Under the pieces are notes generated by a model. It saw nothing but the letters and a program-made list of their open reading frames with translations, was not told the DNA's origin and ran no database searches. Of a stretch of DNA of 64,000 nt, positions 4,545-55,042 are shown in pieces. The stretch's first letter is position 1. Every line of letters begins with the position of its first letter. The position numbers and the translations under genes were made by a program. The stretch is from a virus (lineage: Duplodnaviria; Heunggongvirae; Uroviricota; Caudoviricetes): the IMG/VR virus record IMGVR_UViG_2851938318_000001, one strand, 5' to 3'.

Positions 4545-4587
4545 GTGCTTTCCTTTGTTTTTTAAACAAATTGTTTTCTAGTATTAG

Positions 4588-5337
4588 TTAATTAGATAGG
4601 GGATCAATAAACCGCCGTGCTTCTTCCAGTTCTTCTGGAAAGTGGGCGGAAATAAGGCGCTCTGGAACGATTTCCATTAGCCAGATAGCGGAGAAAATTG
4701 CGCGTATGCGCTTGCTGCGAGGGATGGTGCGCAAACGCTCCAGAATCCACTCAAAATAGCTTTCCTGAATCGGGTTGAACTGCATGTCTCCCATATGCTT
4801 AAAGCTAACAAGAGAGTCATCCAGACGGGTTGTTGCGCGTCTGGCTAATTTCTCTTCAAATATCTCAATCAGTTCTGGCTGCCACAAATGCTGTGGGCGC
4901 GGCAGCTTGTCCCACAGCCGTCGTGCAGCTGCGGAAAGAACGGTGGAGATAAAGTAGTCGTATGAGCAGCAATAGCGATCCGCAAACTGGCGTGCTTTCC
5001 ATAGCGACGTTTTATTGGCAGTCGACAACTCCTGATAAGGCAGGCGTTTTAACCCGGTGGTGAACGGAGCTGTTTCAAAGTGTTCGCGACCGTGCGTCAG
5101 CATGATATTTGAGTACTGACGTTTGTATGCCTCCGTAAAAAGACAGGTGGCCATGAGAGGATGCATGTCGCGGTAATCAAACCACTTCGTCTCGAAGAGT
5201 TCAGCCTCGTCTTTACAGCGCGACAAACCAATGTTTTCAGCGACCCACTTGTCCATAACAGCGGTATTCCACTCTGTCATGAAGTCGTACTGGTCGTTGT
5301 CGATGGTATCGAAAAAGATTTGGCTCATGTGGCTCAC
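4588..5337 (-). CDS. hypothetical protein of the replication module (possible initiator or helicase loader)
   Basis: 249-aa ORF immediately upstream of and co-oriented with the helicase gene; no recognisable motif. Confidence 0.4.
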   Translation of the reverse strand: MSHMSQIFFDTIDNDQYDFMTEWNTAVMDKWVAENIGLSRCKDEAELFETKWFDYRDMHPLMATCLFTEAYKRQYSNIMLTHGREHFETAPFTTGLKRLPYQELSTANKTSLWKARQFADRYCCSYDYFISTVLSAAARRLWDKLPRPQHLWQPELIEIFEEKLARRATTRLDDSLVSFKHMGDMQFNPIQESYFEWILERLRTIPRSKRIRAIFSAIWLMEIVPERLISAHFPEELEEARRFIDPLSN

Positions 5338-5444
5338 CTGGTAGGTAGTTACTTACTTATCACAATGAGCGGATGATAGCGACTGGTGGCAGTTTTTGGA
5401 AGTGGAAACGGAAGGGAGTTGTTCTGGTGGTGTCTTTTAAAAGA

Positions 5445-5499
5445 CCTGCTTCCGTATATATTTAATAAGTTACTTATTATTTATATATACAGAAGCAGG
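5445..5499. repeat. 55-bp near-perfect palindrome, copy 1 of 2
   Basis: cctgcttccgtatatatttaataagttacttattatttatatatacagaagcagg; arms contain CTGTATATAT-like half sites; centre carries the TAAGTTACTTATT motif. Confidence 0.8.
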
Positions 5500-5610
5500 C
5501 ATAACTTGTCGTCTTAGACGCCCAGAAGCTCTACACTTTGAGCCTGTTAAATTGATTAAAAACTTATGTGTAAAATAGAACGCATTAGTCAGTAGCTAAG
5601 AGATGCAATA

Positions 5611-6378
5611 ATGGACGATTTATCGGTATACGCGAGATCATTGGATAAGGCTAAATACTATGTTTACTGTCTCTATGATACAGAAGACAAGATGAAAAGA
5701 CCGTTTTACATAGGAAAAGGCAAATCGACTCGTTGTCTCGATCACATCAAGTATCCCGATGACTCTCCCAAATCCATGCGGATCAAAGAACTTTTGGCTA
5801 ATAAAAAATTAGGCATAGATATTCTTCGTCATGGTATGGATGAAACCACAGCCAAACTTGTTGAGGCGACATGCATCGACCTTATGGGGGTCGGAGAGCT
5901 TACGAATAAGGTACGAGGAAGTGGTTCCATGATGGGCAGAATATCACTGGACGCCTACCATCACTTAGTGCTGCAAGAGGAAACTGAAATTGCTCCTGAG
6001 CACGCCGGTCTTGCCTTCCTGCTAAACAGCACCTACAAGTCAGGAATGTCCGCTCTGGCATTATATGAAGCTACGCGTGGCGTATGGGCAAAGGTTCCAA
6101 GAGACGAGAATCTCAAATATGCCTACGCTACATATGGTGGGCTAATAATGGAAGTTTATCAGATTGAATGCTGGGTCAAAGCCGGTTCTCAGCAGTACTT
6201 TACAAGGGATATAGCTCTTGGCCCCGACACAAAACGTTATGAATTTGTTGGCAGAATAGCCGATGAGCATATTAGAAAACTGTATGTAGGCAAATTAATC
6301 AAGAAGCCACCAAGCTACGGTAGCCCTTTTGTGAAGGTTGGGGTGGTTAGGACTGAACATAGTGTTAGCGCGGCATAA
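5611..6378 (+). CDS. GIY-YIG domain nuclease, possible free-standing homing endonuclease
   Basis: 255 aa; N-terminus YVYCLYD...FYIGKGKSTRCLDH fits the GIY-(10-13)-YIG...R...H pattern; lone plus-strand gene between replication and partition modules. Confidence 0.55.
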   Translation: MDDLSVYARSLDKAKYYVYCLYDTEDKMKRPFYIGKGKSTRCLDHIKYPDDSPKSMRIKELLANKKLGIDILRHGMDETTAKLVEATCIDLMGVGELTNKVRGSGSMMGRISLDAYHHLVLQEETEIAPEHAGLAFLLNSTYKSGMSALALYEATRGVWAKVPRDENLKYAYATYGGLIMEVYQIECWVKAGSQQYFTRDIALGPDTKRYEFVGRIADEHIRKLYVGKLIKKPPSYGSPFVKVGVVRTEHSVSAA

Positions 6379-6430
6379 AGCTGACACTGTAGTTATGCAT
6401 TGGCGCAATGTACGCGCCAATGCATGATTT

Positions 6431-6790
6431 TTAACCTTTCTTCATCAACTCTCGTTTGATTTCATCGGTACGCATCGTGACATCGGCAGCGGTGATCGCC
6501 TCATTCAATTTCACGATGTCCTCGATTTCCTGCGGTGACTTCTCTGCCAGATGGAAAATGGCTGCTCGAATCACGTCAGAACGAGTGAACTTCTCGAAGC
6601 GAGGGATGAACTTCATCATCTCCAGCAGTTCGAAGTATTCGTCCTCCAGTGACATTGTGCGGCTTTTAATTTTCTCTTTGCCACGAGTCGGGCGTCCCTG
6701 TGGTCTGACTGGTTGGCGCAAAGGAGTTGTGTTCTTAGCCGGTGCATCAGGCTCTTTGCGCTTTGCTAGGTCACCCATTTTCATGGACAT
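6431..6790 (-). CDS. small centromere-binding partner of ParA (ribbon-helix-helix, ParG-like)
   Basis: 119 aa; basic N-terminal tail then a beta-strand/helix pattern (TMSLEDEYFELLEMM...RSDVIRAAIFHL); start overlaps the parA stop. Confidence 0.5.
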   Translation of the reverse strand: MSMKMGDLAKRKEPDAPAKNTTPLRQPVRPQGRPTRGKEKIKSRTMSLEDEYFELLEMMKFIPRFEKFTRSDVIRAAIFHLAEKSPQEIEDIVKLNEAITAADVTMRTDEIKRELMKKG

Positions 6791-7458
6791 TATTCTTCTT
6801 CCTCCAGACTCAACAGATAATCTACAAATTCTTCAAACTCGGCTTCCGCCTTTTTGTCGCGCTCGCTACCGGTCATTTCAAAGATAGAACGACCAGACTC
6901 TTCCGCATCATCATAGACGTTGCGGTTATATAGATTGACTGGCGCAGACTCGATTCCAAACGTCTCAACAATCTCTTTAGCCGCCAGAATGCGAGACACT
7001 TGTGATGGCAAAGCCGGGCACTGGTTCATGACCGCGCGGACCTTCACTTTATCGTTTACATTGCGAACATTGTCGATAATAGGATCGATGTCACGTAAAG
7101 ATTTCAAATCACGACGCTTAGGACGCAGCGGGATAATGATAACGTCAGCCATCAGCATCGCTTGTCGCTGAATTTCGGAGTCGAAGCCACCAGCATCTAC
7201 CACTACAAACTCAGCTCTACCCTGAAGCGATTTTAGGTGCTTAATGATGTCATCCTGAACGTATGCAAAAGGAATCAGCTCAAGGTCTTCGTTCTGTCGA
7301 CGGTCTTCACACCAGCTCGTTGTCGTGCGCTGAATATCTATATCGGTAATATAAACCTTCTTCTTCTTTTTGACTTTCAGGCAAACGGCAATTTGCTGGG
7401 CAACGGTGGATTTGCCAGGCCCGCCCTTTGTGCCGCCAACCACAAAGATCTTGGTCAT
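6790..7458 (-). CDS. parA: ParA-family partition ATPase (small, type Ib)
   Basis: 222 aa; deviant Walker A GGTKGGPGKST; second motif VVVDAGG. Confidence 0.8.
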   Translation of the reverse strand: MTKIFVVGGTKGGPGKSTVAQQIAVCLKVKKKKKVYITDIDIQRTTTSWCEDRRQNEDLELIPFAYVQDDIIKHLKSLQGRAEFVVVDAGGFDSEIQRQAMLMADVIIIPLRPKRRDLKSLRDIDPIIDNVRNVNDKVKVRAVMNQCPALPSQVSRILAAKEIVETFGIESAPVNLYNRNVYDDAEESGRSIFEMTGSERDKKAEAEFEEFVDYLLSLEEEE

Positions 7459-7633
7459 TGGAGAGTTCCCTTTGCGTATATAATTATCGTCTGAAACAAC
7501 TTGTTTTCTTATATGTGATATAGCCTAAATGCCTACGGCTGCGGTGTAAAGGTTAAATGGTAGGTTGTGATTAACAATTTGAACCGCCCCGGAAATCCTG
7601 GAGACTAAACTCCCTGAGAAAGAGGTAAACAGG

Positions 7634-7960
7634 ATGACTAAAAATACTCGTTTTTCCCCCGAAGTCCGTCAGCGGGCGATTCGTATGGTTCTGGAAAGTC
7701 AGGATGAATATGACTCACAGTGGGCGGCAATTTGTTCCATTGCCCCAAAGATTGGCTGTACGCCGGAGACTCTGCGTGTCTGGGTTCGCCAGCATGAGCG
7801 GGATACCGGGGGCGGTGATGGTGGGCTCACCAGCGCTGAACGTCAGCGTCTGAAAGAGCTGGAACGTGAAAATCGTGAACTGCGCCGCAGTAACGATATC
7901 CTTCGCCAGGCTTCCGCTTATTTTGCGAAGGCGGAGTTCGACCGCCTCTGGAAAAAATGA
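7634..7960 (+). CDS. IS3-family transposase OrfA (HTH)
   Basis: 108 aa; A-run at the orfA/orfB overlap consistent with -1 frameshifting. Confidence 0.85.
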
Positions 7961-8847
7961 TGCCACTGCTGGATAAGCTGCGTGAGCAGTACGGGGTCGG
8001 ACCGGTATGCAGCGAACTGCATATTGCCCCGTCAACGTATTACCATTGTCAGCAACAGCGACATCATCCGGATAAACGCAGTGCCCGTGCGCAGCACGAC
8101 GACTGGCTGAAGAGAGAGATACAGCGCGTATACGATGAAAATCATCAGGTGTACGGTGTGCGTAAAGTCTGGCGTCAGTTGTTACGGGAAGGAATCAGGG
8201 TGGCCAGATGTACAGTGGCACGTCTCATGGCGGTTATGGGACTTGCCGGTGTTCTCCGGGGTAAAAAGGTCCGTACGACCATCAGCCGGAAAGCCGTTGC
8301 CGCAGGCGACCGCGTAAACCGTCAGTTCGTGGCAGAACGACCTGACCAGCTGTGGGTGGCTGATTTTACTTACGTCAGCACATGGCAGGGCTTCGTCTAT
8401 GTGGCGTTTATCATTGATGTGTTTGCCGGATACATCGTGGGGTGGCGGGTCTCATCGTCTATGGAAACGACATTCGTGCTGGATGCGCTGGAGCAGGCGT
8501 TGTGGGCCCGTCGTCCGTCTGGCACCATCCATCACAGCGATAAAGGCTCTCAGTATGTGTCACTGGCCTATACGGAGCGACTAAAAGAAGCCGGATTACT
8601 GGCATCAACAGGGAGTACAGGCGACTCGTATGACAACGCGATGGCTGAGAGCATCAATGGTCTTTACAAAGCGGAGGTAATACACCGTAAGAGCTGGAAA
8701 AACCGTGCAGAAGTGGAACTGGCCACACTAACGTGGGTGGACTGGTATAACAATCGACGATTGCTGGGAAGGCTGGGCCATACTCCTCCGGCAGAAGCAG
8801 AAAAAGCTTATTATGCTTCCATCGGAAACGATGATCTGGCAGCCTGA
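7957..8847 (+). CDS. IS3-family transposase OrfB (DDE catalytic domain)
   Basis: 296-aa ORF in the -1 frame relative to OrfA. Confidence 0.85.
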
Positions 8848-9089
8848 GTTCACAGATAAAACACTCTCCAGGAAACCCGGGGCGGTTCAATTGGCAATCA
8901 TAGCTTGTATTTGTCTGTTGAAAAAAGTAACAATGACCTCTATATTACAAGTACGGTGATATGCCGTACACAATTTGATAATGCACACGTAATGGGCTAT
9001 AGCCTTTTAAAGTAATTTTTGAGTCGAAAACTCAGTTTGAACAGAGGAGATTGATGGCCTTCCTACATCACGGCCATCAGGAGGAATAC

Positions 9090-9359
9090 ATGTCAGCACT
9101 AAAAAAGCAGCGCATCGATTTGAGATTAACCGATGACGATAAAAGCATCATCGAGGAAGCTGCCGCAATGTCTAACCAGAGCATTACTCAGTTTATGGTT
9201 AGCAGTGCATCTGAACGTGCCGTGAAAGTTATAGAGCAACACCGTAGACTAGTTCTGAATGAAGAATCCTGGAATCTGGTTATGGACGCTATAAGCAATC
9301 CTCCGGCACCGAACGACAAGCTGAAACGAGCTGCTGATCGTCTGAAAAGCATGGAGTAG
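9090..9359 (+). CDS. DUF1778-type antitoxin (TacA-like)
   Basis: Start chosen at ATG 9090 preceded by AGGAGG; about 89 aa; immediately upstream of the GNAT toxin gene. Confidence 0.65.
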   Translation: MSALKKQRIDLRLTDDDKSIIEEAAAMSNQSITQFMVSSASERAVKVIEQHRRLVLNEESWNLVMDAISNPPAPNDKLKRAADRLKSME

Positions 9360-9366
9360 TTTACTC

Positions 9367-18600: not shown

Positions 18601-19530
18601 AACGCGCATAGGTTCGAGGTCTGGTTCTGTAATAGTCCAGACGCCGTTCAAAACAGGCGTTTCAGCCGAAGACAGGGCTTTTGAAAACGTAACTTTTGTT
18701 ATATTTTCGCCAGTTTCAAGAACATCGCGTTCAACGATTTTGCCTTCCTGATTCAGTATTCGAATAAAGCAGCCGCCTTTGGCTAACGACACAGGCGCAT
18801 CGAGTGTGACGCTGTTTTTGGTAAACGCCACAATTCGACCTGAGTTACGTTTGCCTGCGCGATATTTGTTCTGAATCAGAACGGTTTCACCAGGCATCAG
18901 AAATGACGCGTCTAAGCCGGCAGTAAATGTAATTACATCCGACTCCATTCTGGAGGTATATAAAAGCCACAAACCAACTCGGTGAGCCTGCCCTCGGCTT
19001 GTACAGCCAAATGCTACGACTTCTGTTTTACGCTCACCATAACGGCGCATTGCGTCCTGATCTTCGACGTACTCGATGTTTTGCTTATAACCGTCCTCCT
19101 TGTTGTTGTAGGTTACGAGCGCAACGGATGGGCGATCTTTACGCGCAGAACCTTTATAGGTAAACAATCCATCTTTGACGTTAGAGTTGGTAAACATCAT
19201 TACCGGATCTGATGGGCTATCCTGCATGATGTTAACCATCCCACCAGCCCAAAACACCATGCCGCGGAATGCTCCGGCAATATCCTGAATTAGCCGGTAT
19301 GCGTCCTGTCGACTGGTGATCTGCGTATTGATTGCAAAGCGTTTCTCTTTGCCACCAAAGCCATCATCGACCTCTTCGTCACAATATCGACCAATCTGGT
19401 ACAACTGGCCAAGGTCAATCATAGATTCCGACACATACTGACCAAGGCCATATCGAGCATTGGTCAGCAAATCAAAGAGAATCCACGCGGGGTTCGAAGA
19501 AGACAACAGCTTAAAAGTGCCATCCCATAC
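15661..19530 (-). pseudogene. host-specificity (tail tip) protein J, C-terminal fragment, cut by IS insertion
   Basis: Reading frame stays open up to the IS boundary at 19530 and reads V-WDGTFKLLSSSNPAWILFDLL, contiguous with the lambda J-like N-terminal fragment; central coiled-coil repeats (ISAAI/EQEARA). Confidence 0.8.
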
Positions 19531-19572
19531 TGAACCGCCCCGGGTTTCCTGGAGAGTGTTTTATCTGTGAAC

Positions 19573-20463
19573 TCAGGCTGCCAGATCATCGTTTCCGATG
19601 GAAGCATAATAAGCTTTTTCTGCTTCTGCCGGAGGAGTATGGCCCAGCCTTCCCAGCAATCGTCGATTGTTATACCAGTCCACCCACGTTAGTGTGGCCA
19701 GTTCCACTTCTGCACGGTTTTTCCAGCTCTTACGGTGTATTACCTCCGCTTTGTAAAGACCATTGATGCTCTCAGCCATCGCGTTGTCATACGAGTCGCC
19801 TGTACTCCCTGTTGATGCCAGTAATCCGGCTTCTTTTAGTCGCTCCGTATAGGCCAGTGACACATACTGAGAGCCTTTATCGCTGTGATGGATGGTGCCA
19901 GACGGACGACGGGCCCACAACGCCTGCTCCAGCGCATCCAGCACGAATGTCGTTTCCATAGACGATGAGACCCGCCACCCCACGATGTATCCGGCAAACA
20001 CATCAATGATAAACGCCACATAGACGAAGCCCTGCCATGTGCTGACGTAAGTAAAATCAGCCACCCACAGCTGGTCAGGTCGTTCTGCCACGAACTGACG
20101 GTTTACGCGGTCGCCTGCGGCAACGGCTTTCCGGCTGATGGTCGTACGGACCTTTTTACCCCGGAGAACACCGGCAAGTCCCATAACCGCCATGAGACGT
20201 GCCACTGTACATCTGGCCACCCTGATTCCTTCCCGTAACAACTGACGCCAGACTTTACGCACACCGTACACCTGATGATTTTCATCGTATACGCGCTGTA
20301 TCTCTCTCTTCAGCCAGTCGTCGTGCTGCGCACGGGCACTGCGTTTATCCGGATGATGTCGCTGTTGCTGACAATGGTAATACGTTGACGGGGCAATATG
20401 CAGTTCGCTGCATACCGGTCCGACCCCGTACTGCTCACGCAGCTTATCCAGCAGTGGCATCAT
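19573..20463 (-). CDS. IS3-family transposase OrfB
   Basis: 296-aa ORF identical to the copy-1 OrfB. Confidence 0.85.
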
Positions 20464-20786
20464 TTTTTCCAGAGGCGGTCGAACTCCGCCTTCGCAAAAT
20501 AAGCGGAAGCCTGGCGAAGGATATCGTTACTGCGGCGCAGTTCACGATTTTCACGTTCCAGCTCTTTCAGACGCTGACGTTCAGCGCTGGTGAGCCCACC
20601 ATCACCGCCCCCGGTATCCCGCTCATGCTGGCGAACCCAGACACGCAGAGTCTCCGGCGTACAGCCAATCTTTGGGGCAATGGAACAAATTGCCGCCCAC
20701 TGTGAGTCATATTCATCCTGACTTTCCAGAACCATACGAATCGCCCGCTGACGGACTTCGGGGGAAAAACGAGTATTTTTAGTCAT
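20460..20786 (-). CDS. IS3-family transposase OrfA
   Basis: 108-aa ORF identical to the copy-1 OrfA. Confidence 0.85.
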
Positions 20787-20840
20787 CCTGTTTACCTCTT
20801 TCTCAGGGAGTTTAGTCTCCAGGATTTCCGGGGCGGTTCA

Positions 20841-37348: not shown

Positions 37349-38605
37349 CTATCGAGAACCACCAAGAATAACACGGTTTTTGACTGGATACCTACGATGT
37401 ACTGGATAGCCCAATGCGTCTGCACTATGCTCAATGCCACCTGTCTTATCCATATCTCGTGTTCCAGGCTTGTAGATGACCTTTTCCAGTGAATCAATCA
37501 AATGCTTGCACTTCGGATCGATATACAGCCGGATATCTCCAGATGCGGTCATCAGCATTCGGTTAACAGCATTAACACGATCCGCAATTGGCGGGTGCTT
37601 TTTCGAATAATCGACACGTAAGAATCCCTTCTCTTTGAATATGTCTACGTCAGACTCCCCGCGAGCATGTTGGCGATAAGCACCTGCCGGATCTGGAAAT
37701 ACCGTTATCTGTGATTTCCAGCGCCAGAAGCGCCTCTCAAGCTCATCACAAACCTCTGCCGTGTTAGAGGAAAAGAGCACCAATTCATCAATTGCCCATA
37801 GCTCACCATTTGGCTGAGGTTGCAAAATTACGGAAGACATCGGGTCAATGTTGAAGTCCTGTCCTACCCATATAGGCAACCGAGGGTTGAACTGAAGCGG
37901 TTTAACATGCACGTTTCGATCGAACGGGTAGTAAACGCGCCCGGACATATTTTCAAAGCTGGCCAGGTACTCCTGAGCGAACGATTTAGGGTCCATATCG
38001 TTCTTAGCAGCTTCAATTTCCGCCGTAGGCACAAACGGCGAATCAGCAGTTACAAACTGCCAGCTCTTCCACTGTCCCTTTCTTTGCAGCTCTACGTTCT
38101 GGCCTATAGTCCACAGTTTGTGAAATTCCGAGAAGCCTTTTGGCGTACCAATAATCAGTGCACCGCCGCGTGTCGATGAAAGAGTAGGTCGTAACACCTT
38201 GTACCAGGTGTCAGCCTTCATATCCTGAAATTCATCAAGCACTACAAAATGCAACGCTACGCCGCGCAGAGTGTCAGGTTTATCAGCTCCTTTGAGGGCG
38301 ATCTCCGAACCGTTCTTCAACACGATTGTCATCGTGGTGTCGTTCTTTTTCCTAACCCACTTACGGGGCAGAACTTCCTGTAGATCGTCCCACAAAATCT
38401 GGCGAGCCATCTGGTAAGTAGGAGCGACATACCAGACCCTTTGCTTTTTTTCCTTTGCCGCCGCACGAATAATAGTGGAGATCGACAACCGGGATTTTCC
38501 CCAGCGTCGACCAGCACAAACAACTTTAAATCGATGCGGAGACTGGAAGACTTTCATCTGTCCAGAATGCAGTTGCACAAGACTGAGCGAGGACGGGATT
38601 GCCAT
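37349..38605 (-). CDS. terminase large subunit
   Basis: 418 aa; Walker A-like GRRWGKS, Walker B-like FVVLDEFQD; start overlaps the small-subunit stop. Confidence 0.8.
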   Translation of the reverse strand: MAIPSSLSLVQLHSGQMKVFQSPHRFKVVCAGRRWGKSRLSISTIIRAAAKEKKQRVWYVAPTYQMARQILWDDLQEVLPRKWVRKKNDTTMTIVLKNGSEIALKGADKPDTLRGVALHFVVLDEFQDMKADTWYKVLRPTLSSTRGGALIIGTPKGFSEFHKLWTIGQNVELQRKGQWKSWQFVTADSPFVPTAEIEAAKNDMDPKSFAQEYLASFENMSGRVYYPFDRNVHVKPLQFNPRLPIWVGQDFNIDPMSSVILQPQPNGELWAIDELVLFSSNTAEVCDELERRFWRWKSQITVFPDPAGAYRQHARGESDVDIFKEKGFLRVDYSKKHPPIADRVNAVNRMLMTASGDIRLYIDPKCKHLIDSLEKVIYKPGTRDMDKTGGIEHSADALGYPVHRRYPVKNRVILGGSR

Positions 38606-39237
38606 TATTCGTCCTCCCCTTCACTTCCATCATCTGTCGCATCAAATTCGCTTAGAGCTTCTTCTTCCAACGTCTCAAGCAATTCGTCATCGATGATTTC
38701 AGGCTCGTCGTCTTCCTGACGTAATTTCGCCACCTGGGAAGGCGTAAGCTCACCAAATACCAGGTTCGGAATTTCTTCCTCGTCATTTTCCGCATGATCC
38801 ATGCCCAATGCTTTGGACGAAACTTCAAAGCATTTTGCAAGGGTATTACTGGCTCTCTGTAAGCTCTTGAGAGAACCCTCAATCGCCCCTAAAGGCTTAC
38901 CCTCACGTTTGGCCGTAGTGACTTCGACCATCACCATCTGCCCCAACGCATACGCCCAGCCGTCATAACGTGTACGACGTTCTTCTATCTTTTCCGCACG
39001 GGCTTTAGCGCGAAGCTCTGCGTCAGATTTAAGAGACTCACGAACCATCTTCCCAACAGAGTCCGCGCCTTTCTCTAATCCTCGCTTTTTGAAATGTCTG
39101 GAGAGTGTTTCACGACGAATGCCGTACTCTTCCTCCAGCTTTGAGAGTGTATATTCGCCTGACGTCCATTTGGCTTCAGCTTCGGCCCACTCCGCTGGTG
39201 TCAGGCGAGTTTTTACCTCGTCTTTTTCGACAGTCAT
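38605..39237 (-). CDS. terminase small subunit (putative)
   Basis: 210 aa; N-terminal helix-turn-helix-like region and highly acidic C-terminus. Confidence 0.5.
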   Translation of the reverse strand: MTVEKDEVKTRLTPAEWAEAEAKWTSGEYTLSKLEEEYGIRRETLSRHFKKRGLEKGADSVGKMVRESLKSDAELRAKARAEKIEERRTRYDGWAYALGQMVMVEVTTAKREGKPLGAIEGSLKSLQRASNTLAKCFEVSSKALGMDHAENDEEEIPNLVFGELTPSQVAKLRQEDDEPEIIDDELLETLEEEALSEFDATDDGSEGEDE

Positions 39238-39354
39238 AGATCCCTCTAAAACACACAGAGCGCGTCCATGCGCTCTAAAACAACTTGTTTACTGCATCTG
39301 CTAACCAACTTGTTTTCTGGTGTGTCTAATTAGGTCTGGGCATGTCTTACTAAG

Positions 39355-39435: not shown

Positions 39436-39702
39436 TTACATCACCAGTAACTTCGCTTTGGCTCGACCTAAAGTGGTTAACCCAAGAGTCCGGCGGTGAT
39501 AGCGATTGTCACTGCGTTGGCGCGTATGCCCTTTCTCCACCAGCCCCTTTTTTATCAGAGCGCGAATTGAGAACTGGATACTTTGCTTTGTTGTCTTGTA
39601 CGGCAAAACTTCAAGCAATTCGTCCAGATCAAGTAGATGACCTCGCTCATAACCGAGATTGAGCGTTTTGATGATGTCCTTTTGTTTGTCGGTTAACGTC
39701 AT
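39436..39702 (-). CDS. small winged-helix DNA-binding protein
   Basis: 88 aa, basic; last gene of the ParB/ATPase operon. Confidence 0.4.
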   Translation of the reverse strand: MTLTDKQKDIIKTLNLGYERGHLLDLDELLEVLPYKTTKQSIQFSIRALIKKGLVEKGHTRQRSDNRYHRRTLGLTTLGRAKAKLLVM

Positions 39703-44253: not shown

Positions 44254-44532
44254 ATGAGCGAAAAGAAAACAACTTATTGCCAAGTGGCATTGTCTGATAA
44301 AGCCAATGAAAAACTTGGAAAATTTCAAATAAAACTCAAAGAGAAAAAAATCAAGATGTCTAAGGCTGAAGTTATCAATGCCATTCTGGAGACGATGACT
44401 ATGGCTGAATTTGACAAAGTCACATCTGCCGTTGGGGTTTCCGCTAAGACGCGTGAGAAAATCATGCGCATCTATGAGAACTCCAATATGACAAAAAAAG
44501 ATCTAGAGGAAATACTGAGCAGGTTGCCGTAA
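44254..44532 (+). CDS. hypothetical small protein
   Basis: 92-aa Lys-rich ORF starting 3 nt after the helicase stop. Confidence 0.4.
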   Translation: MSEKKTTYCQVALSDKANEKLGKFQIKLKEKKIKMSKAEVINAILETMTMAEFDKVTSAVGVSAKTREKIMRIYENSNMTKKDLEEILSRLP

Positions 44533-46452: not shown

Positions 46453-46974
46453 ATGGTTAAAGACATCACCTACGGCATACCGGCTGAAGTCTGGCCGCGA
46501 GACTACGAACATGCTGAAAACATACTTATGTTCTGGCGGAAGAACAACATTCCTGTAAGAGTCACGCTTGAAGACGGTCAGGTGTTTTGCATGTACGTTC
46601 AGGGGACAATGCCTTCCCGCAATAAGCTAGATTTATGCCCGCTTCCATATGATAAAGAAAATCGTATAAGACTCCCACTTGAGCGCATTAGCACAATTGA
46701 ATCAGGTGTAATCGATGGCATTGCTCGCGAGTTCAAAGGTAGGCTAACAATACATCCAGACTATGTTGACAATCAGCCATCACGCCGTGACTTTTTTGCG
46801 ATATGTCGCAAGGCTTATCAAAACGACCAATCTATAAGGGTCTACATGGCAGACGGTCGTGAAATAGAAGGGGTGTCAAGAGGCGTTGATGCTTGCCAGG
46901 TCACTCTTAAGTTAGAAGACGGCAGAAAAATACTTGTTTTCTTCGATTGGGTTGAACGAATCCTTCCTTTTTAA
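46453..46974 (+). CDS. hypothetical protein with an internally duplicated domain
   Basis: 173 aa; two similar halves (IPVRVTLEDGQVF / IRVYMADGREIEGV). Confidence 0.4.
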   Translation: MVKDITYGIPAEVWPRDYEHAENILMFWRKNNIPVRVTLEDGQVFCMYVQGTMPSRNKLDLCPLPYDKENRIRLPLERISTIESGVIDGIAREFKGRLTIHPDYVDNQPSRRDFFAICRKAYQNDQSIRVYMADGREIEGVSRGVDACQVTLKLEDGRKILVFFDWVERILPF

Positions 46975-49030: not shown

Positions 49031-49513
49031 TTACACGCCATCAAGGATGTGGATGCGGTTGCTTGCGTATACATTCAGCATAAAGTTAGCGCAAAACAGT
49101 TTCCATGTGTCAACGCCAGCGGTATACGTAATATTTTTGCATTTAATTGCATTGTTGGCGATCCGCATCCCCTGCGATACTGCTTCATCGTCGGAAAATT
49201 TGAACGACGATTGAGTTTTAATCCAGACAGAAATCTGCGTAGCGAACTCAATCAGCTTGGACTGGCAGAATCGCCCGGAGCGCACCGGAAAGACGAACGT
49301 TCCGAATCCAGAATTTACCACATACGCTTTCTCAAATACCCGCGAGTAACGACGATTACCAATGATGTCACGTGCAATAATGCATTTTTCTTGTGCTGAC
49401 AGTTCTACCGTCTCATTGTCGCGCCATGCACCAAGTACTCGTTTTTCAATGTCAGAGAACGTTACAGCGATATTGCCATGTGCGGGTGCGTTTACAGTAG
49501 CGATAAAATTCAT
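49031..49513 (-). CDS. hypothetical protein (early small-gene array)
   Basis: 160-aa ORF; conserved AAACAA-N-TTGTTTTCTT element at 49535..49570 upstream. Confidence 0.45.
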   Translation of the reverse strand: MNFIATVNAPAHGNIAVTFSDIEKRVLGAWRDNETVELSAQEKCIIARDIIGNRRYSRVFEKAYVVNSGFGTFVFPVRSGRFCQSKLIEFATQISVWIKTQSSFKFSDDEAVSQGMRIANNAIKCKNITYTAGVDTWKLFCANFMLNVYASNRIHILDGV

Positions 49514-49717
49514 GATTAATTCCTTATCGTAAATAACAAATTGTTTTCTTGTTGTTGTTAATTATCGCTGTACGAATAAGGCGTCAAAGTTGAAAACTAC
49601 GGTAGCCGGACGGGAACAGGTGGGTTTGTCGGTTGCCTGGAGGTAAGAGGTTGGTGTTTTTAGCCTGCGGGAAACAAGATGGTCATTTAAGGCCACCAGC
49701 ATTGGTGGCCTTATTCT

Positions 49718-49999
49718 TTAGTGGAGTAGAGCGATGTCGATGGTATCCCCTGAATCATCCACACGGATCATCAGCATGGCGAAGGCGTTTAGTGGATAAC
49801 TGGCGTGCCATTCAGGGAAGCGGTCATCTCGCATGAAGTCAGCAATGTCGTAAACGCAGCCCTCAAAGTGGAAGAATCGCGTGCTTACCTGCTCGTCATA
49901 ATCCACATGATCCATTTCTTGCTGTTCTGTTTCCGGCAAGTCCAGCCATGATTCGAGGAATACATTTTGTGCTTTGGTGGTAATGGTGAAATCAGTCAT
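49718..49999 (-). CDS. hypothetical small protein (array member)
   Basis: Start at second Met (49999), 7 nt after AGGA; N-terminal 19 codons lie in a 57-bp repeat shared with 50482..50540. Confidence 0.45.
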   Translation of the reverse strand: MTDFTITTKAQNVFLESWLDLPETEQQEMDHVDYDEQVSTRFFHFEGCVYDIADFMRDDRFPEWHASYPLNAFAMLMIRVDDSGDTIDIALLH

Positions 50000-50191
50000 G
50001 AGCATATCCTAACTGCGTAAACATGTTGTTTTCTTGTTGGTGTAATTATCGCAGTGTAGATAAGGCATAAAAGAAGTTAATACAGGCTGAATACGCAAGA
50101 AAGGTTCTGGAAGTTGATAGCTAGGTTTCAAACTAACCTTCGGTTATTAAAAGTCATTTAAGGCCACCAGCGTTAACTGGTGGCCTATATC

Positions 50192-50455: not shown

Positions 50456-50469
50456 CGTAATACTCTCAC

Positions 50470-50730
50470 TTAATGCGGCAAAGCCAGCCATGATTCGAGG
50501 AATACATTTTGTGCTTTTGGGGTAATGGTGAAATCAGTCATCGTGCCCCCCATCTCCTGCAACTGTGCAACGGTGATATCTGGACACAGCCCGTCGATCC
50601 ACACCCACACGTCAATGATGCTGTCACCGGCTTCAAAATGGTGAAATGCGCGCTCAAGCTGCTGATTGTTATCCACAGGCTCATTTGCTAGCTGCGCCCA
50701 GATTTGCTGGACTTGAGTAATAGTTTTCAT
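50470..50730 (-). CDS. hypothetical small protein, apparently chimeric
   Basis: 86 aa; last 24 codons (TMTDFTITPKAQNVFLESWLALPH) are a copy of the N-terminus of the 49718..49999 product; SD AGAGGA upstream. Confidence 0.45.
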   Translation of the reverse strand: MKTITQVQQIWAQLANEPVDNNQQLERAFHHFEAGDSIIDVWVWIDGLCPDITVAQLQEMGGTMTDFTITPKAQNVFLESWLALPH

Positions 50731-50843
50731 CTGCTTTCCTCTTGTTTTCTTGTTGTTGTAATTATCGAAGTTTAGATAAGGCAGAAAATAAATTGTTATC
50801 GGGCATAAGAAAATGGCGCGGTTTACGCGCCATTCAAAGAGGA

Positions 50844-51239
50844 TTAAGCGAATACGCTTTCAGGGATTAAGGTGTCGGCAGGAATGCCAGAGGTAATGCG
50901 CAGGCCGTACTGACCAATCCAGGTGGTGCTGGTGTTCAGGCTGGAGGTGAATACGGAATTAACCATACTCATCATGGTTTCAAACACCTCTTCATCAACC
51001 TGGCGGAAGTAGTTCTCGATTTTCAGCAGCAGTGGGTCAGTTGCATCGAGAATGGACTGGTATTGAGTCGCGTACTCGCCGCCGGAGGCATCACCTTTAC
51101 GCACGATCGTACTGGCCTGGACTTCGGCACCAGTTTCGGTGTTGTACGTAACAACGGTGATTTTTGCCACATTCTTACCTTCGGCAGTTTCAGAGGCATA
51201 GTAAACATCAACTGTCAGTTTTTCGCGTTTAACGGTCAT
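50844..51239 (-). CDS. hypothetical protein
   Basis: 131-aa ORF; palindromic motif gtaggtatgtacttac at 51283..51298 upstream. Confidence 0.4.
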   Translation of the reverse strand: MTVKREKLTVDVYYASETAEGKNVAKITVVTYNTETGAEVQASTIVRKGDASGGEYATQYQSILDATDPLLLKIENYFRQVDEEVFETMMSMVNSVFTSSLNTSTTWIGQYGLRITSGIPADTLIPESVFA

Positions 51240-51365
51240 TTCACTCTCCGTAGTGTATTGGTTATTTTTCTATTTTATAGTCGTAGGTATGTACTTACAA
51301 TACAAAAAAGCCCCGTAAGGATGGCGGGGCTGTCGTACTGTCGACTAATTACCACTTGCACATTA

Positions 51366-51707
51366 TCAGGCTATTGCCATCACTGATGCTCTCTGAATTT
51401 CTTGCTGGGCCACGCGGTTAACTTCCATCAAAGCCAGTTCGAGCTGATGTTCCGGCCACATTCTTTGAAATGCCACCCAGCCTTTTCCACGCTGGCGGCG
51501 AACATTCATTACATAACGAGTAAAGGTGTTTTTATCGAAAGACACCGCGGTTTCACGGAACAGACGAATAGAGGTTCCATTGGCAACGATGTCCAGCAAA
51601 GTTAATTGAGCAACCAGTGCAGGCTTCTCTTTTCTCTTCTGGTCTTTGTCCAGACCAAGAACCAATGATTTTTTCATCACAACTCCGTAAACAACTTGTT
51701 TTCTCAA
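51366..51707 (-). CDS. hypothetical basic protein
   Basis: 113-aa ORF; conserved upstream element at about 51700..51720. Confidence 0.35.
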   Translation of the reverse strand: MRKQVVYGVVMKKSLVLGLDKDQKRKEKPALVAQLTLLDIVANGTSIRLFRETAVSFDKNTFTRYVMNVRRQRGKGWVAFQRMWPEHQLELALMEVNRVAQQEIQRASVMAIA

Positions 51708-51830
51708 TGGCGTAAATAATACCAGTAAGAAAACGGCTACAAAGCATATTGATCAGGTGCATGAGCGATATGCAGGTTCTTCCCTGCGGCTACAGATTAA
51801 GTTAAGCCAGCAATGCTGGCTTAGATTGGT

Positions 51831-52181
51831 TTACGCGAATACCTCAAGAAACTCCTGAACGTCCCAATGCTGGACGAGGTGAAGATAGACCTTAGAAATC
51901 ACGTCATTCTCGCTATCGCATGTGAAGTAGTACTTCTGGCTGCGGTTGTATGTGTCCACACAAAATTCGCTCATATCCATAAAGTCAGCATCTTCACCCA
52001 GGTCGCAAATCATCAAAGCAGGTGCGTCATCACGAGTCATCAGCTCAAGCACCCACCGCGAATTGATCAGAGTGGAAGACCAACCTTCTAACTCATAAAA
52101 CTGATCAAACTCTTTTTGAGTTAATTTCTTGATTTGGTTGATGTCGATATGTGCAAACATAAAGCAATCCTTAAACAACAT
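51831..52181 (-). CDS. hypothetical acidic protein
   Basis: 116-aa ORF; conserved upstream element at 52176..52210. Confidence 0.4.
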   Translation of the reverse strand: MLFKDCFMFAHIDINQIKKLTQKEFDQFYELEGWSSTLINSRWVLELMTRDDAPALMICDLGEDADFMDMSEFCVDTYNRSQKYYFTCDSENDVISKVYLHLVQHWDVQEFLEVFA

Positions 52182-52334
52182 GTTTTCTTGTTGGTGTTAT
52201 TATCGTAATAACGCACAGGCGAAAAAGGATTTTATTCCGGTGAATGTGGTTTTGGCAGTGAGTTTTCAGGTTCAGTACCGAGTACACTTTTTACATTATT
52301 CTGATTTAGTGGCCGAAGGTGGCTGGTGGACAGA

Positions 52335-52652
52335 ATAATCCTCTCCCCGAAAACCTACTGAAATCGATTGTGACCCGCTGACTGTCTGGCACAATTACGC
52401 TGTAGCTGGGCATTCAGAGGGAATCCAGCGGTAAGCAAGTCCGCCTGCACGTGAGCGCCTCTCTTCTTCCCGCACATTGCAGGTGGGTAGCCGCAACTCT
52501 CCCTCTCGCTATACCGGTACGCCGCCGTTCCTGAACCGGCATTGAGCCTTTTCCCGAAATCCACACAGGCAACTCGACCGTTTCCCTGAAAACCTCCAGC
52601 CGTTCCCAAAGGCAACCCAGCCGTTTCTGTAGCGGGATGCAGCCTTTCCCCT
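52335..52652. repeat. iteron-like direct repeat cluster 2
   Basis: GCCGTT/GCCTTT cores at 52524, 52546, 52578, 52599, 52620 and 52642 (mostly 21-22-bp steps); related ctccccgaaaacc at 52335. Confidence 0.55.
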
Positions 52653-52789
52653 GTATGGACCGAAGGCTGACCGTAGGGGTGTTACGGGGGATAAAATCAG
52701 GAGTTGAATAAATACGAAAAAGGAGGCGACCCCCCTCCTTCCCTCCCCACTTATACATACCTGGCTTCTTCGCTATACATGTTGTGTTT

Positions 52790-53560
52790 TCTTCGTGTTT
52801 TATCTGTCTCAACCTCTCTATAGGCGTTAATGCTCACACCTTCCAGAACGTTCTATACGGCGACTAATTCTGTTGGTGAATTGGGTGTGTTGTTCTCTCT
52901 GTCGGTGTAAATGGTTTCGTTAGTTTTGCGGTGGTTCTTCTGTGGGATGTTCTCGTCGTTTTGGTGATTGTTCTTCTCCGTGTATGGAGTAAAGGCAGGT
53001 GGGCGATTCCTTTCGTTATTGTGTTTGAGTTGTTTGTCTGGAGTGTGTGAAGGGCTTTTGTAGTTATTCGTGTATTGGGTAATGGCGTTTCCCGTGATTG
53101 TTATGTTTCGTGTCTTTTGGGATTGAGAGAATCCTTGCGGTTACAGGCTTCGTTGGGGTTTCAGTGATTCTGGTGTTTCTTCGCTGTTTGGGTAATGGCG
53201 TGTCGTGGGTATCGCGCGTATGGAAGTTTCGAATTGCCTGTGAAAGTTAGGTTGGTTGTCCGGTAGCCTGCCATAAAGAGGTTGGTTGTTTTTGGAATGG
53301 CATATGTGTTATTTGGTTGTTTTGTTATACCTGAAAATAAGTTGTTTATATGGTTGTGTAACGCAACGGGAGCGATTTTGAGCGTGTGTTTTTGTTGGTA
53401 GTGTGTTTGGTCGTCTGTGGTGAAAATTGGACGCTGTGGCGCTGTCTGCTGCGTAGAATTACGGGTATAAGCAGTGATGTGTGAAAACGTCAATTTTTTA
53501 GACCAAATCGGGTGAAAGCGTTGATGTTTCGTTGATCTGTTATTCAGTTGTTTTCTTATT
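52790..53560. other. ORF-free GT-skewed tract (candidate non-coding RNA or origin-associated region)
   Basis: About 770 bp rich in G and T on the plus strand with short degenerate repeats (gggtaatggcgt twice; ggttggttgt several times); bounded by upstream-element-like sequences at 52787..52815 and 53536..53560. Confidence 0.4.
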
Positions 53561-53690
53561 GGTATAAACAACTATAACCTATTGATATTTAAGGATGTGA
53601 TTGCAGGTATAGAATGGGGGTAGTGGCGATCAACGGATTCTTATAGAAAAGAATCAAATTGTGACCGCCATTATCAATGAGTTGCAACCG

Positions 53691-54260
53691 TTAGTTGTTC
53701 AGATAAACATTTGGAACACGGACGTAGAAGTTCCTGTCGCCGGTAAGTTCCAGAGTAATGTTAATGTCATTACCATTGTCTAGTGTAGCCGTTGCTCTAT
53801 AGAACTTATCCGTCACCTTGTCCTCTATTGTCACCTTCATACATTTTGGTGCAGTCGAACCGTTATTCTCTTTCAGAATAGTTGTCACGAGAGGGCAGGC
53901 TGCTTCTTCAAGAGCAACCTCGTCCTTGTGTGGGATGCCGATGAAGATAACCCAAGCCAGCGACGCAACGATTATGATAAATGGCACTCTGCTGCCTTTT
54001 GTAATAGTCGCGCGCTTCCAGAGATAGACAGGCAGGAGGAATACCCCCCATAGAATTGAAGGTGGTTCACAGCCAGACTCCGATAGAGCCATTCTGTCAG
54101 CTACTAACAAACCGATGGTAGTTACACCCCCAATTATAATAGCGTAATTGGTATACTCTTCCGGCGATACTCCAAAGAAGAAAGGCATGAACGCTAGAAT
54201 CCACGCATAAATGTTATTCAGAGGTTTTGTTTGTTGGTTCTGGGTTTCCATCACATCCAT
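53691..54260 (-). CDS. hypothetical membrane protein
   Basis: 189 aa; about four predicted TM helices then a soluble C-terminal domain. Confidence 0.45.
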   Translation of the reverse strand: MDVMETQNQQTKPLNNIYAWILAFMPFFFGVSPEEYTNYAIIIGGVTTIGLLVADRMALSESGCEPPSILWGVFLLPVYLWKRATITKGSRVPFIIIVASLAWVIFIGIPHKDEVALEEAACPLVTTILKENNGSTAPKCMKVTIEDKVTDKFYRATATLDNGNDINITLELTGDRNFYVRVPNVYLNN

Positions 54261-54413
54261 TCCATCACATAAAAATCGCGTTTATATATTATCAATTTTC
54301 TCACTTGTATAACCTAAATACGCATCCGTTTATCAATCCACCTTCCACAAACATCAGCTTTAGCTATGAAAAATAACAATCTCAAAGTGAAAACCATTAT
54401 CATAGGATAACGA

Positions 54414-54599
54414 TTAGATGAGATGGTCTAATTCATCATCTATCATTGCTTTAACACTTGAGTCATTAACCCCGTATTGATTTATGAACCGTTTCAGCTC
54501 CGGTGAAAACTGAAGGTAGATATCGTGAGCGTTTTTCACTGTAGGTTCAACGCCACGCATTTCAAGCGCCTTTAGTAGATATGAGTCTTCTTTAAGCAT
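54414..54599 (-). CDS. hypothetical small protein
   Basis: 61-aa ORF. Confidence 0.3.
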   Translation of the reverse strand: MLKEDSYLLKALEMRGVEPTVKNAHDIYLQFSPELKRFINQYGVNDSSVKAMIDDELDHLI

Positions 54600-54635
54600 A
54601 AATTCTCCGTTGTCTAGTATGAAGCGATTGCCGGA

Positions 54636-54944
54636 TTACCATTGCCAGCACTCTAGCCCTTCAACGACCGGTGCACCACAATCAAAATGTACAGAGTCAA
54701 AGCCTACATCAAGTACTTTCTGAATGTTCGCAATCGCGCCCTCGGATATACCATATCGACGCAACTCATCTTTCCAGTCATCGTCCTGTAACCCAGCGTG
54801 GACAATGCAACCGTACTCAATTTGTGAAACCCAATCCAGCTCATTGCTTGCGATCATGAATCGGCGAGCATCTTCCTCTGATGTATGAGATGAGCTGATC
54901 AATGCCACCTGGTAGGCTTGGGTAATGTTCAACATTTCAACCAC
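54636..54944 (-). CDS. hypothetical small acidic protein
   Basis: 102-aa ORF; conserved upstream element at 54950..55010. Confidence 0.4.
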   Translation of the reverse strand: MVEMLNITQAYQVALISSSHTSEEDARRFMIASNELDWVSQIEYGCIVHAGLQDDDWKDELRRYGISEGAIANIQKVLDVGFDSVHFDCGAPVVEGLECWQW

Positions 54945-55042
54945 TCCAAAACAAGTTGTTTTCTTATGTGGTTTATTATCTCCATCAACAAAAGGCAGAA
55001 AACAAATTGTTTTAGGTACTGTGTAAATCAGAAGGGATTGTG

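Follow-up and report, generated by a model that had tools for sequence, protein, structure and literature searches.

The C1 operators of phage P1 are asymmetric 17-bp sites (ATTGCTCTAATAAATTT) that occur at many promoters, including that of the gene for a DnaB-type helicase. Partition proteins can act as global repressors, as is the case for KorB of RK2, omega of pSM19035 and SopB of N15, the last being a phage-plasmid in which dispersed centromere sites affect late gene expression. At the RNA level, FljA reportedly acts on the leader of Salmonella fliC to block translation and hasten decay, and Sm/Hfq folds are able to bind both A-rich and U-rich sequences.

Here we analysed a stretch of 64,000 nucleotides (the window) from the E. 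coli phage-plasmid pRM9131-1, an SSU5-family element of 117 kb, in which a 16-base motif, AGAAAACAAnTTGTTT, marks the predicted start of about 20-25 transcription units. Most likely, these units are controlled in common through the motif and form an undescribed regulon of a widespread family of plasmid-prophages. The plasmid collection has about 800 records of SSU5-type elements, a family to which the S. Typhi plasmid pHCM2 and the Y. pestis plasmid pMT1 belong, and a literature search found no published account of the control of SSU5-type lytic genes or of the motif.

The original prediction of a shared upstream element was borne out by counting. The 17-mer AAACAANTTGTTTTCTT, with up to three mismatches allowed, has 24 matches in the window against 1.21 expected (maximum of 5 in 100 shuffles), and the 9-mer AGAAAACAA occurs 13 times against 1.36 expected. 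The copies continue beyond the window: the 117-kb plasmid holds 27 core copies with at most two mismatches, nearly all intergenic and upstream of genes, and all 16 copies with at most one mismatch lie outside annotated coding sequence, which makes up 80% of the plasmid (non-coding, 20%). The sites of the window are collected in Table 1. Those listed earlier resolve into nine full copies, two inverted copies (54996-55012 and 62786-62802), two half-sites and one degenerate copy; absent from that list were two copies of inverted type (50782-50798 and 53331-53347) and two weaker, intragenic ones (44263-44279 and 46927-46943).

Table 1. Copies of the motif and genes of the two candidate effectors, in window coordinates
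Feature	Position	Strand	Context
Candidate effector 2, ParB-like protein (117 aa)	6431..6784	-	downstream of small ParA (222 aa)
Full copy, TAGAAAACAATTTGTTT in gene orientation	4564..4580	-	centre 26 nt before ATG of DnaB-like helicase gene 3204-4544
Perfect copy	7494..7510	-	centre 42 nt before ATG of small parA 6790-7458
terS-proximal copy	39278..39294	-	centre 47 nt before ATG of terS 38605-39237
terS-distal copy	39303..39319	-	25 bp upstream of terS-proximal copy
Weaker copy	44263-44279		inside gene
Candidate effector 1, FljA-family protein (PF03614), two tandem Hfq/Sm-like domains predicted	46453..46974	+	
Weaker copy	46927-46943		inside gene
Full copy after GATAAT	49534..49550	-	before array gene 49031-49513
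Full copy after GATAAT	50019..50035	-	before array gene 49718-49999
Half-site AGAAAACAA only, after GATAAT	50742..50750	-	before array gene 50470-50730
Inverted copy, TAACAATTTATTTTCTG in gene orientation	50782..50798	.	overlaps -35 region, unit of gene 50470-50730
Full copy after TATTAT	51689..51705	-	before array gene 51366-51677
Full copy after GATAAT	52173..52189	-	before array gene 51831-52160
Degenerate copy AAGAAAACACAACATGT	52787-52815		
Inverted-type copy	53331..53347	.	within unannotated A/C-rich stretch
Half-site AGAAAACAA only	53548..53556	-	head of unannotated A/C-rich stretch
Perfect copy after GATAAT	54949..54965	-	before DUF5983 gene 54636-54935
Inverted copy	54996..55012	.	about -38 of DUF5983 gene unit; 51 bp from copy 54949..54965
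Inverted copy	62786..62802	.	after hairpin, upstream of GAAAAT and gene 62260-62715

The site is a dyad of 13-19 bp, and the short inverted repeat noticed earlier is real. In a matrix built from 63 non-redundant sites, position -4 is A in 63 of 63 sites, variants with ATCAA being almost never seen, and a T at -20 and an A at -22, -21 and -18 are conserved. The two arms are unequal, the AGA-proximal one holding 9 mismatches against 18 in the other, and the AGA extension faces the promoter side in every case. Half-sites also occur singly, and roughly one copy in four is inverted and placed upstream of the -10 box. Information content is below 0.5 bit outside positions -24 to +7 and the genes downstream (dnaB, parA, terS, nrdB, cobT and the small ORFs) are unrelated; the motif is therefore not a by-product of duplication of those genes.

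In gene orientation, each unit reads as a -10-like box, 10-12 nt, AGAAAACAAnTTGTTT, a ribosome-binding site and the ATG. The A/T-rich -10-like hexamer, also recognized in the earlier work, ends 10-12 nt before the AGA of the motif; at the array genes it reads GATAAT or TATTAT and the spacing to the AGA is 10-11 nt, whereas elsewhere the hexamer is weaker. The centre of the motif lies 18-81 nt, mostly 18-31 nt, before the start codon, and at parA, terS and nrdB, where this distance rises to 38-72 nt, the motif still adjoins the -10-like box, which suggests that it tracks the start site and not the ribosome-binding site. We infer that the motif is centred near +13 and covers roughly +4 to +20. 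In some units a second, inverted copy is centred near -38, exactly 51 bp upstream of the first, and this pair recurs in SSU5, the K. quasipneumoniae plasmid and viral contigs. A conserved hairpin follows the terS-proximal copy, and hairpins between the array genes make it plausible that these are monocistronic.

A shared cis-element at the boundary of promoter and 5' leader is supported, whereas the promoter activity ascribed to it earlier is conjectural, and a plain sigma-70 scan finds no promoter at the sites where the -10-like box stands 10-12 nt upstream of the motif. Between 49000 and 55200 the consensus scan returned seven promoter-like sites, none of the seven at a motif unit (shuffles, 10.9), and the canonical arrangement of -35 and -10 boxes with a spacer of 16-18 nt was not found at motif units; poor -35 regions explain why the scan passes over these sites. 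Nor does the motif single out early, anti-defence or takeover genes as had been proposed, for it also precedes genes of replication, partition, nucleotide metabolism and packaging (terS).

Relatives from E. coli, Salmonella, Klebsiella and Yersinia have the motif in identical form, and orthologous units (terS, parA, dnaB, cobT, nrdB and the small-gene array) are marked in SSU5, two Klebsiella lineages and pMT1. Counting core copies with at most one mismatch against local shuffles gave 20 versus 0.2 in SSU5, 17 versus 0.17 in Klebsiella pJN2-26, 19 versus 0.4 in the K. quasipneumoniae plasmid and 6 versus 0.2 in pMT1. The helicase copy is conserved in SSU5, Cyrano, pJN2-26 and the K. quasipneumoniae plasmid, the copy at 53331..53347 keeps its position in SSU5 and both Klebsiella plasmids, and a copy was found before every parA examined. 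Across this lineage the proteins are 30-90% identical (median about 55-60%), and at the orthologous units both flanks and proteins are down to about 50% identity. The Moellerella relative, with 3 core copies versus 0.7 in shuffles, is counted as being without the motif regulon, and the Aeromonas relative has no core copy; a scan of viral contigs for the exact motif returned mostly SSU5-type contigs together with single chance matches. Presence at orthologous units despite this divergence, combined with absence from distant relatives, renders duplication, chance or a conserved host factor unlikely. In the distant relatives, comparable positions are occupied by other palindromes, irrespective of host G+C content, which argues for a binder encoded by the element.

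Expression in the lysogen is compatible with negative control. In the RNA-seq data of the Cyrano lysogen (PMC9928086, S1 table), where background is 9.8, most motif-linked genes stand at background: terS at 7.1, cobT at 7.8, nrdB at 12.9, tciA at 7.0, CYRAN_101 at 7.5, CYRAN_105/106 at about 12 and CYRAN_110 at 6.7. The exceptions are parA (50) and dnaB (21), which are expressed though motif-bearing (PMC9928086).

On balance we favour, with modest confidence, the reading that about 20-25 transcription units have the motif at their start as a negative-control operator, and action on DNA appears somewhat more probable than not. Each unit would comprise a -10-like box, little or no -35 and, 10-12 nt further on, the motif, on whose dyad an element-encoded protein could block initiation or promoter escape, much as a repressor would at lacO1 at +11. 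The second, inverted copy would overlap the -35 region about five helical turns (51 bp) upstream, and a protein bound to both copies flanking the -10 box could clamp the promoter. In the plasmid-prophage state, such an operator would hold the units for replication, nucleotide metabolism, small genes and packaging silent. Whereas the motif, its enrichment, placement and conservation and the silence of most linked genes in a lysogen are observed, we infer where transcription starts, that a protein binds and in which direction it regulates. In favour of a DNA operator are the enrichment, the intergenic location, the fixed geometry, the dyad, the 51-bp pairs, the conservation at orthologous units, the absence from distant relatives, the silence of most linked genes in the lysogen and the failure of the leaders to fold better than shuffles. 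Against it stand the expression of parA and dnaB in the lysogen, the asymmetric arms and lone half-sites, and the predicted RNA-binding fold of the candidate whose distribution best matches that of the motif. The motif promoters, being unrecognized by the sigma-70 scan, could also be silent for lack of an activator and not through repression.

An operator in the RNA leader is a serious contender that we hold at below even chances. In its specific form, which is possible yet doubtful, the motif would be the first 20 or so nucleotides of each mRNA, bound by the FljA-family protein so that translation is blocked and decay hastened. This would make it the RNA operator of a post-transcriptional regulon, a tentative proposal in which a protein of predicted tandem Hfq-like fold would gate the translation and stability of about 25 mRNAs, those of lytic and replication genes and of small accessory ones. 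This protein matches PF03614 over its full length (E 5.3e-81; 270.9 bits, cut-off 24), and its predicted model (pTM 0.76) shows two units of a helix plus five strands, for which Hfq makes up nearly all of the best 50 PDB matches (rmsd 1.0-1.5 A, 56-61 residues aligned). It is encoded in all five motif-bearing genomes, including pMT1, and is absent from the Moellerella and Aeromonas relatives, and across plasmids it shows much the same counts per genus as the SSU5-type terminase (Enterobacteriaceae and Yersinia); this match of distributions is, however, confounded by phylogeny. In the leader of Salmonella fliC, ATCAAGTTGTAAT has its centre 24 nt ahead of the ATG and resembles the motif AAACAAGTTGTTT, centred 18-31 nt before most ATGs, with CAAGTTGT as shared core; a place within the leader fits the motif provided that the predicted transcription start is right. 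Furthermore, the sense strand carries the better-conserved arm, AGAAAACAA, and the motif read as RNA is an A-rich tract followed by a U-rich one. The inverted quarter of the copies, on the other hand, lies outside the leader of the respective gene, and at parA, terS and nrdB the motif follows the -10-like box instead of the ribosome-binding site. An RNA hairpin was set aside: leaders folded no better than shuffles (z-scores -0.6 to +0.85), the minimum free energy of the motif alone was 0, and neither a 5'-terminal stem-loop nor an Rfam family match was found at the motif leaders. The protein is only 43% identical between lineages with an identical motif, and its mRNA is low in the Cyrano lysogen, at 18 against a background of 9.8 (PMC9928086).

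The ParB-like protein offers a further alternative, in which the motif would be the operator, and possibly the dispersed centromere, of a partition protein acting as global repressor; we regard this as unlikely. The gene order and sizes (a small Walker ParA of 222 aa, then the ParB-like protein of 117 aa) fit type Ib partition. The motif stands at the parA promoter in every genome or contig with the ParB-like protein, no other repeat array was seen upstream of parA, and the genus counts of the protein match the SSU5-type elements of Enterobacteriaceae. A genome scan for the protein returned only six close relatives. The parA promoters of SSU5 type carry a single dyad and that of the K. quasipneumoniae plasmid a dyad with flanking half-sites, and at the parA promoter of the Moellerella homologue the same half-site forms an everted repeat, TATTGTTT..AAACAATA. 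The blocks RPQGRPTRGK..IKSRTMS.EDE and FTRSDVIRAAI are invariant despite 48% identity between lineages, and the gene is expressed in the lysogen along with parA (CYRAN_29, 89; PMC9928086). Yet pMT1 is without the ParB-like protein and keeps six copies, Moellerella has the protein and no regulon, and a repressor always present in the plasmid state would need an extra release mechanism. The protein matched no Pfam family and bore no KorB/ParB or ribbon-helix-helix signature, and its single-sequence AF2 model was weak (pLDDT 67), so that a ribbon-helix-helix fold is a reading of the sequence only.

Binding by a conserved host protein such as IHF (consensus WATCAANNNNTTR) is very improbable, even though identical motifs occur in elements from Escherichia, Salmonella, Klebsiella and Yersinia and AACAAnTTGTTT of the motif resembles the IHF H' site, ATCAATTTGTTG. 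Departures from the consensus at two conserved positions (A for T and T for R) in nearly all 63 sites rule against an IHF site, the Moellerella plasmid lacks the regulon in what is also an Enterobacterales host, and other lineages use different palindromes at comparable positions. Promoter cassettes inherited through duplication, or a preference in the initial transcribed sequence, with no dedicated binder, are similarly improbable: the array promoters do share about 60 nt (TTTTnnGCCTT..GATAAT..ACCAACAAGAAAACAA) and two array genes a duplicated coding segment (MTDFTIT.KAQNVFLESWL), but the motif also follows unrelated upstream sequences before unrelated genes (dnaB, parA, terS, nrdB, cobT), is kept base for base where flanks diverged, and would be left with its dyad symmetry unexplained.

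That the motif is neither a DNA-level nor an RNA-leader operator seems improbable. As to the binder, the FljA-family protein is a reasonable candidate short of even odds, another protein of the element is a substantial possibility, the ParB-like protein is a long shot and a host factor is scarcely credible. Other proteins were considered and rejected. The 88-aa winged-helix protein upstream of terS (39436-39702) is weakly similar to the DNA-binding domain of LexA (E 0.07) and is the small protein with the highest conservation, at 78% in the divergent Klebsiella lineage. Its recognition helix, TTKxSxQFSIRAL, is however the same in distant elements with other palindromes; it is more likely to bind a second motif, AGGTAAGTnnTTACCT, whose GTAA-N4-TTAC core is common to the Aeromonas motif. 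The XRE-type repressor encoded beside the integrase, beyond the window, is missing in SSU5 even though that element has 20 copies, and the repressor's own intergenic region carries a different dyad (GGTAAGTGCTTACC). A lysogen-expressed 92-aa protein after the UvsW-like helicase has no homologue found in the K. quasipneumoniae plasmid, and the S24 peptidase resembles UmuD and was not found in the other genomes.

Among clinical Enterobacteriaceae, SSU5-type phage-plasmids are common, and they can carry resistance genes. A single 16-base signal gives a map of the regulon and a direct starting point for reporter assays, footprinting and pull-downs, with two concrete candidate regulators, the FljA-family and the ParB-like protein. 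If the former is the effector, a function would be assigned to a family known from one target; were the RNA operator true, that function would extend beyond flagellar phase variation and would explain why these elements carry an FljA-family protein.

The kind of system is already known, that is, a dispersed operator regulon, and this particular regulon is undescribed. As with lacO1, the dyad would be centred about +11 to +13 and the auxiliary site would fall on the same helical face (51 bp here), whereas the two are unrelated in sequence and the auxiliary site here overlaps the -35 region instead of lying at a distance. FljA and fliC offer a parallel in that FljA targets the leader of the gene it controls; a PF03614 protein is encoded by the element and a fliC-like sequence stands at a similar distance from the ATG, the likeness being limited to the core; FljA has one known target, in contrast to about 25 putative ones here. 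KorA/KorB, omega and SopB similarly combine 12-13 bp palindromes or short repeats at many promoters with a protein of the partition operon, whereas the ParB-like protein is linked to the motif only through the logic of autoregulation and the conserved blocks. Unlike the asymmetric P1 site, the present one is a 13-19-bp dyad of other sequence with candidate binders; as in P1, the same short site is found at many separate, scattered promoters of a plasmid-prophage of about 100 kb, a DnaB-type helicase gene included, an arrangement that in P1 ties lytic functions to a single regulator.

The motif, a repeated element lying upstream of genes in this SSU5-type phage-plasmid, reads AAGAAAACAAnTTGTTT in gene orientation and AGAAAACAAGTTGTTTTCT in its double-stranded 19-mer form. 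A search of the window for the 17-mer with up to 3 mismatches returned 24 copies where 1.2 were expected and where the highest of 100 shuffles did not exceed 5, and the 9-mer AGAAAACAA was found 13 times against 1.4 expected. Every position at which the original prediction had placed a copy is occupied (nine full copies, two inverted copies, two half-sites and one degenerate copy). The window corresponds to Escherichia coli plasmid pRM9131-1 (NZ_CP028430.1, 117,123 bp), from which it differs by a single 1-nt indel in 64 kb; this SSU5-type phage-plasmid is kin to phage Cyrano (pLF82), Salmonella phage SSU5, Klebsiella phage-plasmids and Yersinia pMT1, and most window genes are carried on the minus strand. 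For plasmid-wide counts the whole of pRM9131-1 was reassembled from three annotated stretches and was found to hold 27 copies of the core AAACAAnTTGTTT with up to 2 mismatches, including copies outside the window before nrdB, a TerB/TciA-like gene, cobT and others. All 16 core copies with at most 1 mismatch are intergenic, in a plasmid of which annotated CDS make up 80%. The observation is confirmed and extended to a family-wide regulon signal, of which no account was found in the papers searched for SSU5 repressors, operators or promoters and for the motif strings.

The anatomy of the motif was drawn from 63 non-redundant oriented sites of five genomes. The core is almost invariant, an AGA extension is present on a single side only, and the AGA-adjacent arm carries 9 mismatches against 18 in the opposite arm. 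Further upstream is an A/T-rich box with T at -20 and A at -22, -21 and -18, information content elsewhere being below 0.5 bit. In units of the array, a cluster of small genes, GATAAT or TATTAT ends 10-11 nt before AGA, and weaker hexamers stand at 10-12 nt in front of dnaB, parA and terS. If the A/T-rich box is the -10 element, transcription would start a few bases before AGA with the dyad centred near +13. The motif centre precedes ATG by 18-31 nt in most units and by 38-72 nt at nrdB, parA and terS; therefore the motif tracks the -10-like box and not the ribosome-binding site. About a quarter of all copies have the inverted orientation (AAACAAnTTGTTTTCTGCC) and extend over the -35 region, and where a unit has both orientations the spacing is exactly 51 bp in pRM9131-1, SSU5, the K. 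quasipneumoniae plasmid and metagenomic contigs. At terS two tandem copies lie 25 bp apart. A plain sigma-70 scan called none of the motif-unit promoters because their -35 regions are poor, and so their promoter function is something we infer.

We lean towards the motif acting as a DNA operator, in view of its dyad symmetry, its coupling to a -10-like box, the inverted copies at their fixed distance upstream of that box, and the lack of a stable RNA hairpin (leader z-scores of -0.6 to +0.85; minimum free energy of 0 for the motif alone). Rfam matches at the motif leaders were likewise nil. Action at the RNA level is plausible but less probable; it is favoured by the sense-strand asymmetry of the motif, by its place in the inferred leader and by the kind of protein that matches best among the candidates, a member of the FljA family. 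The original prediction of a shared operator or conserved 5'-UTR was broadly right, while its association with early or anti-defence genes did not hold, since the regulon covers replication, partition, nucleotide metabolism, packaging and small accessory genes.

Normalised RNA-seq counts are available for every gene of Cyrano, the pLF82 prophage, in E. coli LF82, with a background median of 9.8 (PMC9928086, S1 table). The genes linked to the motif are at this background or close to it (terS 7.1, cobT 7.8, nrdB 12.9, tciA-like 7.0, CYRAN_101 7.5, CYRAN_105/106 ~12 and CYRAN_110 6.7), the exceptions being parA (50) and dnaB (21) (PMC9928086). Cyrano is induced by ciprofloxacin. The low lysogen counts fit negative control via the motif without proving it, and weak promoters that are silent for want of an activator would look the same.

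Core copies number 20 in SSU5, 17 in Klebsiella pJN2-26, 19 in K. quasipneumoniae pKqq_SB1124_3 and 6 in pMT1, against 0.2-0.4 in shuffles. The Moellerella relative is not enriched (3 copies against 0.7 expected) and the Aeromonas relative has none; in distant SSU5-like contigs and in the Aeromonas plasmid, comparable positions are taken by other palindromes that are likewise dispersed (AAGTCA-N4-TGACTT, and AGTAA-N4-TTACT at 24 sites). It follows that the signal is specific to the lineage and goes with the element, and this argues against a conserved host factor as the binder. Orthologous units (terS, parA, dnaB, cobT, nrdB, DUF4942, DUF5983 and array genes) bear the motif within differing flanks, and K. 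quasipneumoniae-lineage proteins share only 30-90% identity with their window counterparts, which rules out chance and recent duplication as its source.

Two proteins are retained as candidate binders (see table). The FljA-family protein is one of seven proteins, a structural Ig-like protein left aside, that are common to all motif-bearing genomes and absent from both Moellerella and Aeromonas; of these seven it alone belongs to a known regulatory family, and pMT1 keeps it and one other. Genus by genus, plasmid counts of the family (Klebsiella 341, Escherichia 228, Enterobacter 92, Yersinia 62, Salmonella 60) run parallel to the counts for the SSU5-type terminase, and where a terminase is found with no motif the protein is lacking, a phyletic match confounded by relatedness. 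No solved structure matched it by sequence. An AlphaFold model from 24 homologues (pTM 0.76) has two helix-plus-five-strand units, and nearly all of its best 50 PDB matches are Hfq (rmsd 1.0-1.5 A over 56-61 residues); the family is accordingly predicted, from the model, to consist of two tandem Hfq/Sm-like domains. In the Salmonella fliC leader, taken from metagenome contigs, ATCAAGTTGTAAT is centred 24 nt before ATG and shares CAAGTTGT with the motif, the FljA contact site there being putative; the E. coli K-12 fliC leader has AATCAACGACTTGCAAT in place of ATCAAGTTGTAAT. A weakness of this candidate is that identity of the protein is as low as 43% across lineages whose motif does not differ. 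The Aeromonas relative lacks a FljA homologue and encodes an Hfq next to dnaB.

The ParB-like protein keeps two invariant blocks at an overall identity down to 48%; the promoter of its operon with ParA bears the motif in every case examined, and its gene is expressed in the Cyrano lysogen (count 89; PMC9928086). Moellerella plasmid NZ_CP093251.1 has a homologue and, at the parA promoter (locus positions ~19090-19125), an everted repeat TATTGTTT-N11-AAACAATA with the same half-site as the motif, the remainder of that plasmid not being enriched. Against this candidate, pMT1 lacks the protein and Moellerella has it without the regulon; no fold or family support for it was obtained. Also considered as motif binders, and rejected, were an 88-aa winged-helix protein, the XRE repressor, a 92-aa protein and the S24 peptidase.

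A second dispersed palindrome, AGGTAAGTnnTTACCT (core GTAA-N4-TTAC), precedes the portal, Ig-like, tail and holin genes, the ParB-ParB-ATPase operon and others, and is also present in the intergenic gap that separates the XRE repressor gene from the adjoining small divergent gene. Its core is that of the 24-copy Aeromonas palindrome, and it resembles the one of the distant contigs. It is probably the element that the original prediction had listed as its first, and the winged-helix protein and XRE repressor are candidates for its binder.

Coordinates of candidate binders, the second palindrome and neighbouring features (window positions unless stated)
Feature	Position	Strand	Remark
FljA-family protein	46453-46974		Candidate motif binder; PF03614, full-length, E 5e-81
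ParB-like protein, 117 aa	6431-6784		Candidate motif binder; after small ParA
Second palindrome	~37343, 33920, 30345, 15621, 11412, 42637, 5351, 51293, 63991		Approximate centres
Second palindrome, perfect copy	pRM9131-1 107454		Outside window
88-aa winged-helix protein	39436-39702		Candidate binder of second palindrome
terS leader hairpin	~39245-39272		GAGCGC-N6-GCGCTC, then TGTGTGTTTT
A/C-rich stretch	52830-53560	minus	~700 nt, unannotated, G-poor
GGGAAAnGGC repeats	~52440-52700	minus	Five, ~22-25 nt apart
Terminator-like hairpin	52716-52741		Strong
Array genes with shared residues	50470-50730; 49718-49999		MTDFTIT.KAQNVFLESWL
IS1203 (IS3-family)	7580-8889; 19531-20840		Two inverted copies, each with ALIL frameshift pseudoknot

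Several neighbouring features were also observed. A conserved hairpin separates the two terS motif copies from the terS ribosome-binding site; in the K. quasipneumoniae lineage it reads GGCGTC..GATGCC, both arms having changed in such a way that they still pair, and it may serve to attenuate the late operon. The A/C-rich stretch, downstream of a half-motif and holding an inverted copy, keeps its position in SSU5 and both Klebsiella lineages and might represent either a non-coding RNA or a leader of the Rho-loading (rut-like) type. The GGGAAAnGGC repeats come after the terminator-like hairpin and look like an iteron or centromere array. In two array genes the last 23 amino acids of one protein recur at the N-terminus of the protein that follows, by sequence a local partial duplication inside the array. 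One IS1203 copy lies ~70 bp upstream of the parA motif copy, in place of the sequence found further upstream in Cyrano, the other splits the tail-gene region, and several more are found elsewhere in pRM9131-1.

The motif would gain in interest if the FljA-family link holds. By sequence it belongs to none of the P1 C1, RK2 KorA/KorB or lacO1 families, and its binder is represented by candidates; in arrangement it operates as do the C1 operators dispersed over P1 and the KorA/KorB operators of RK2, and its geometry is similar to that of lacO1 with an auxiliary site.
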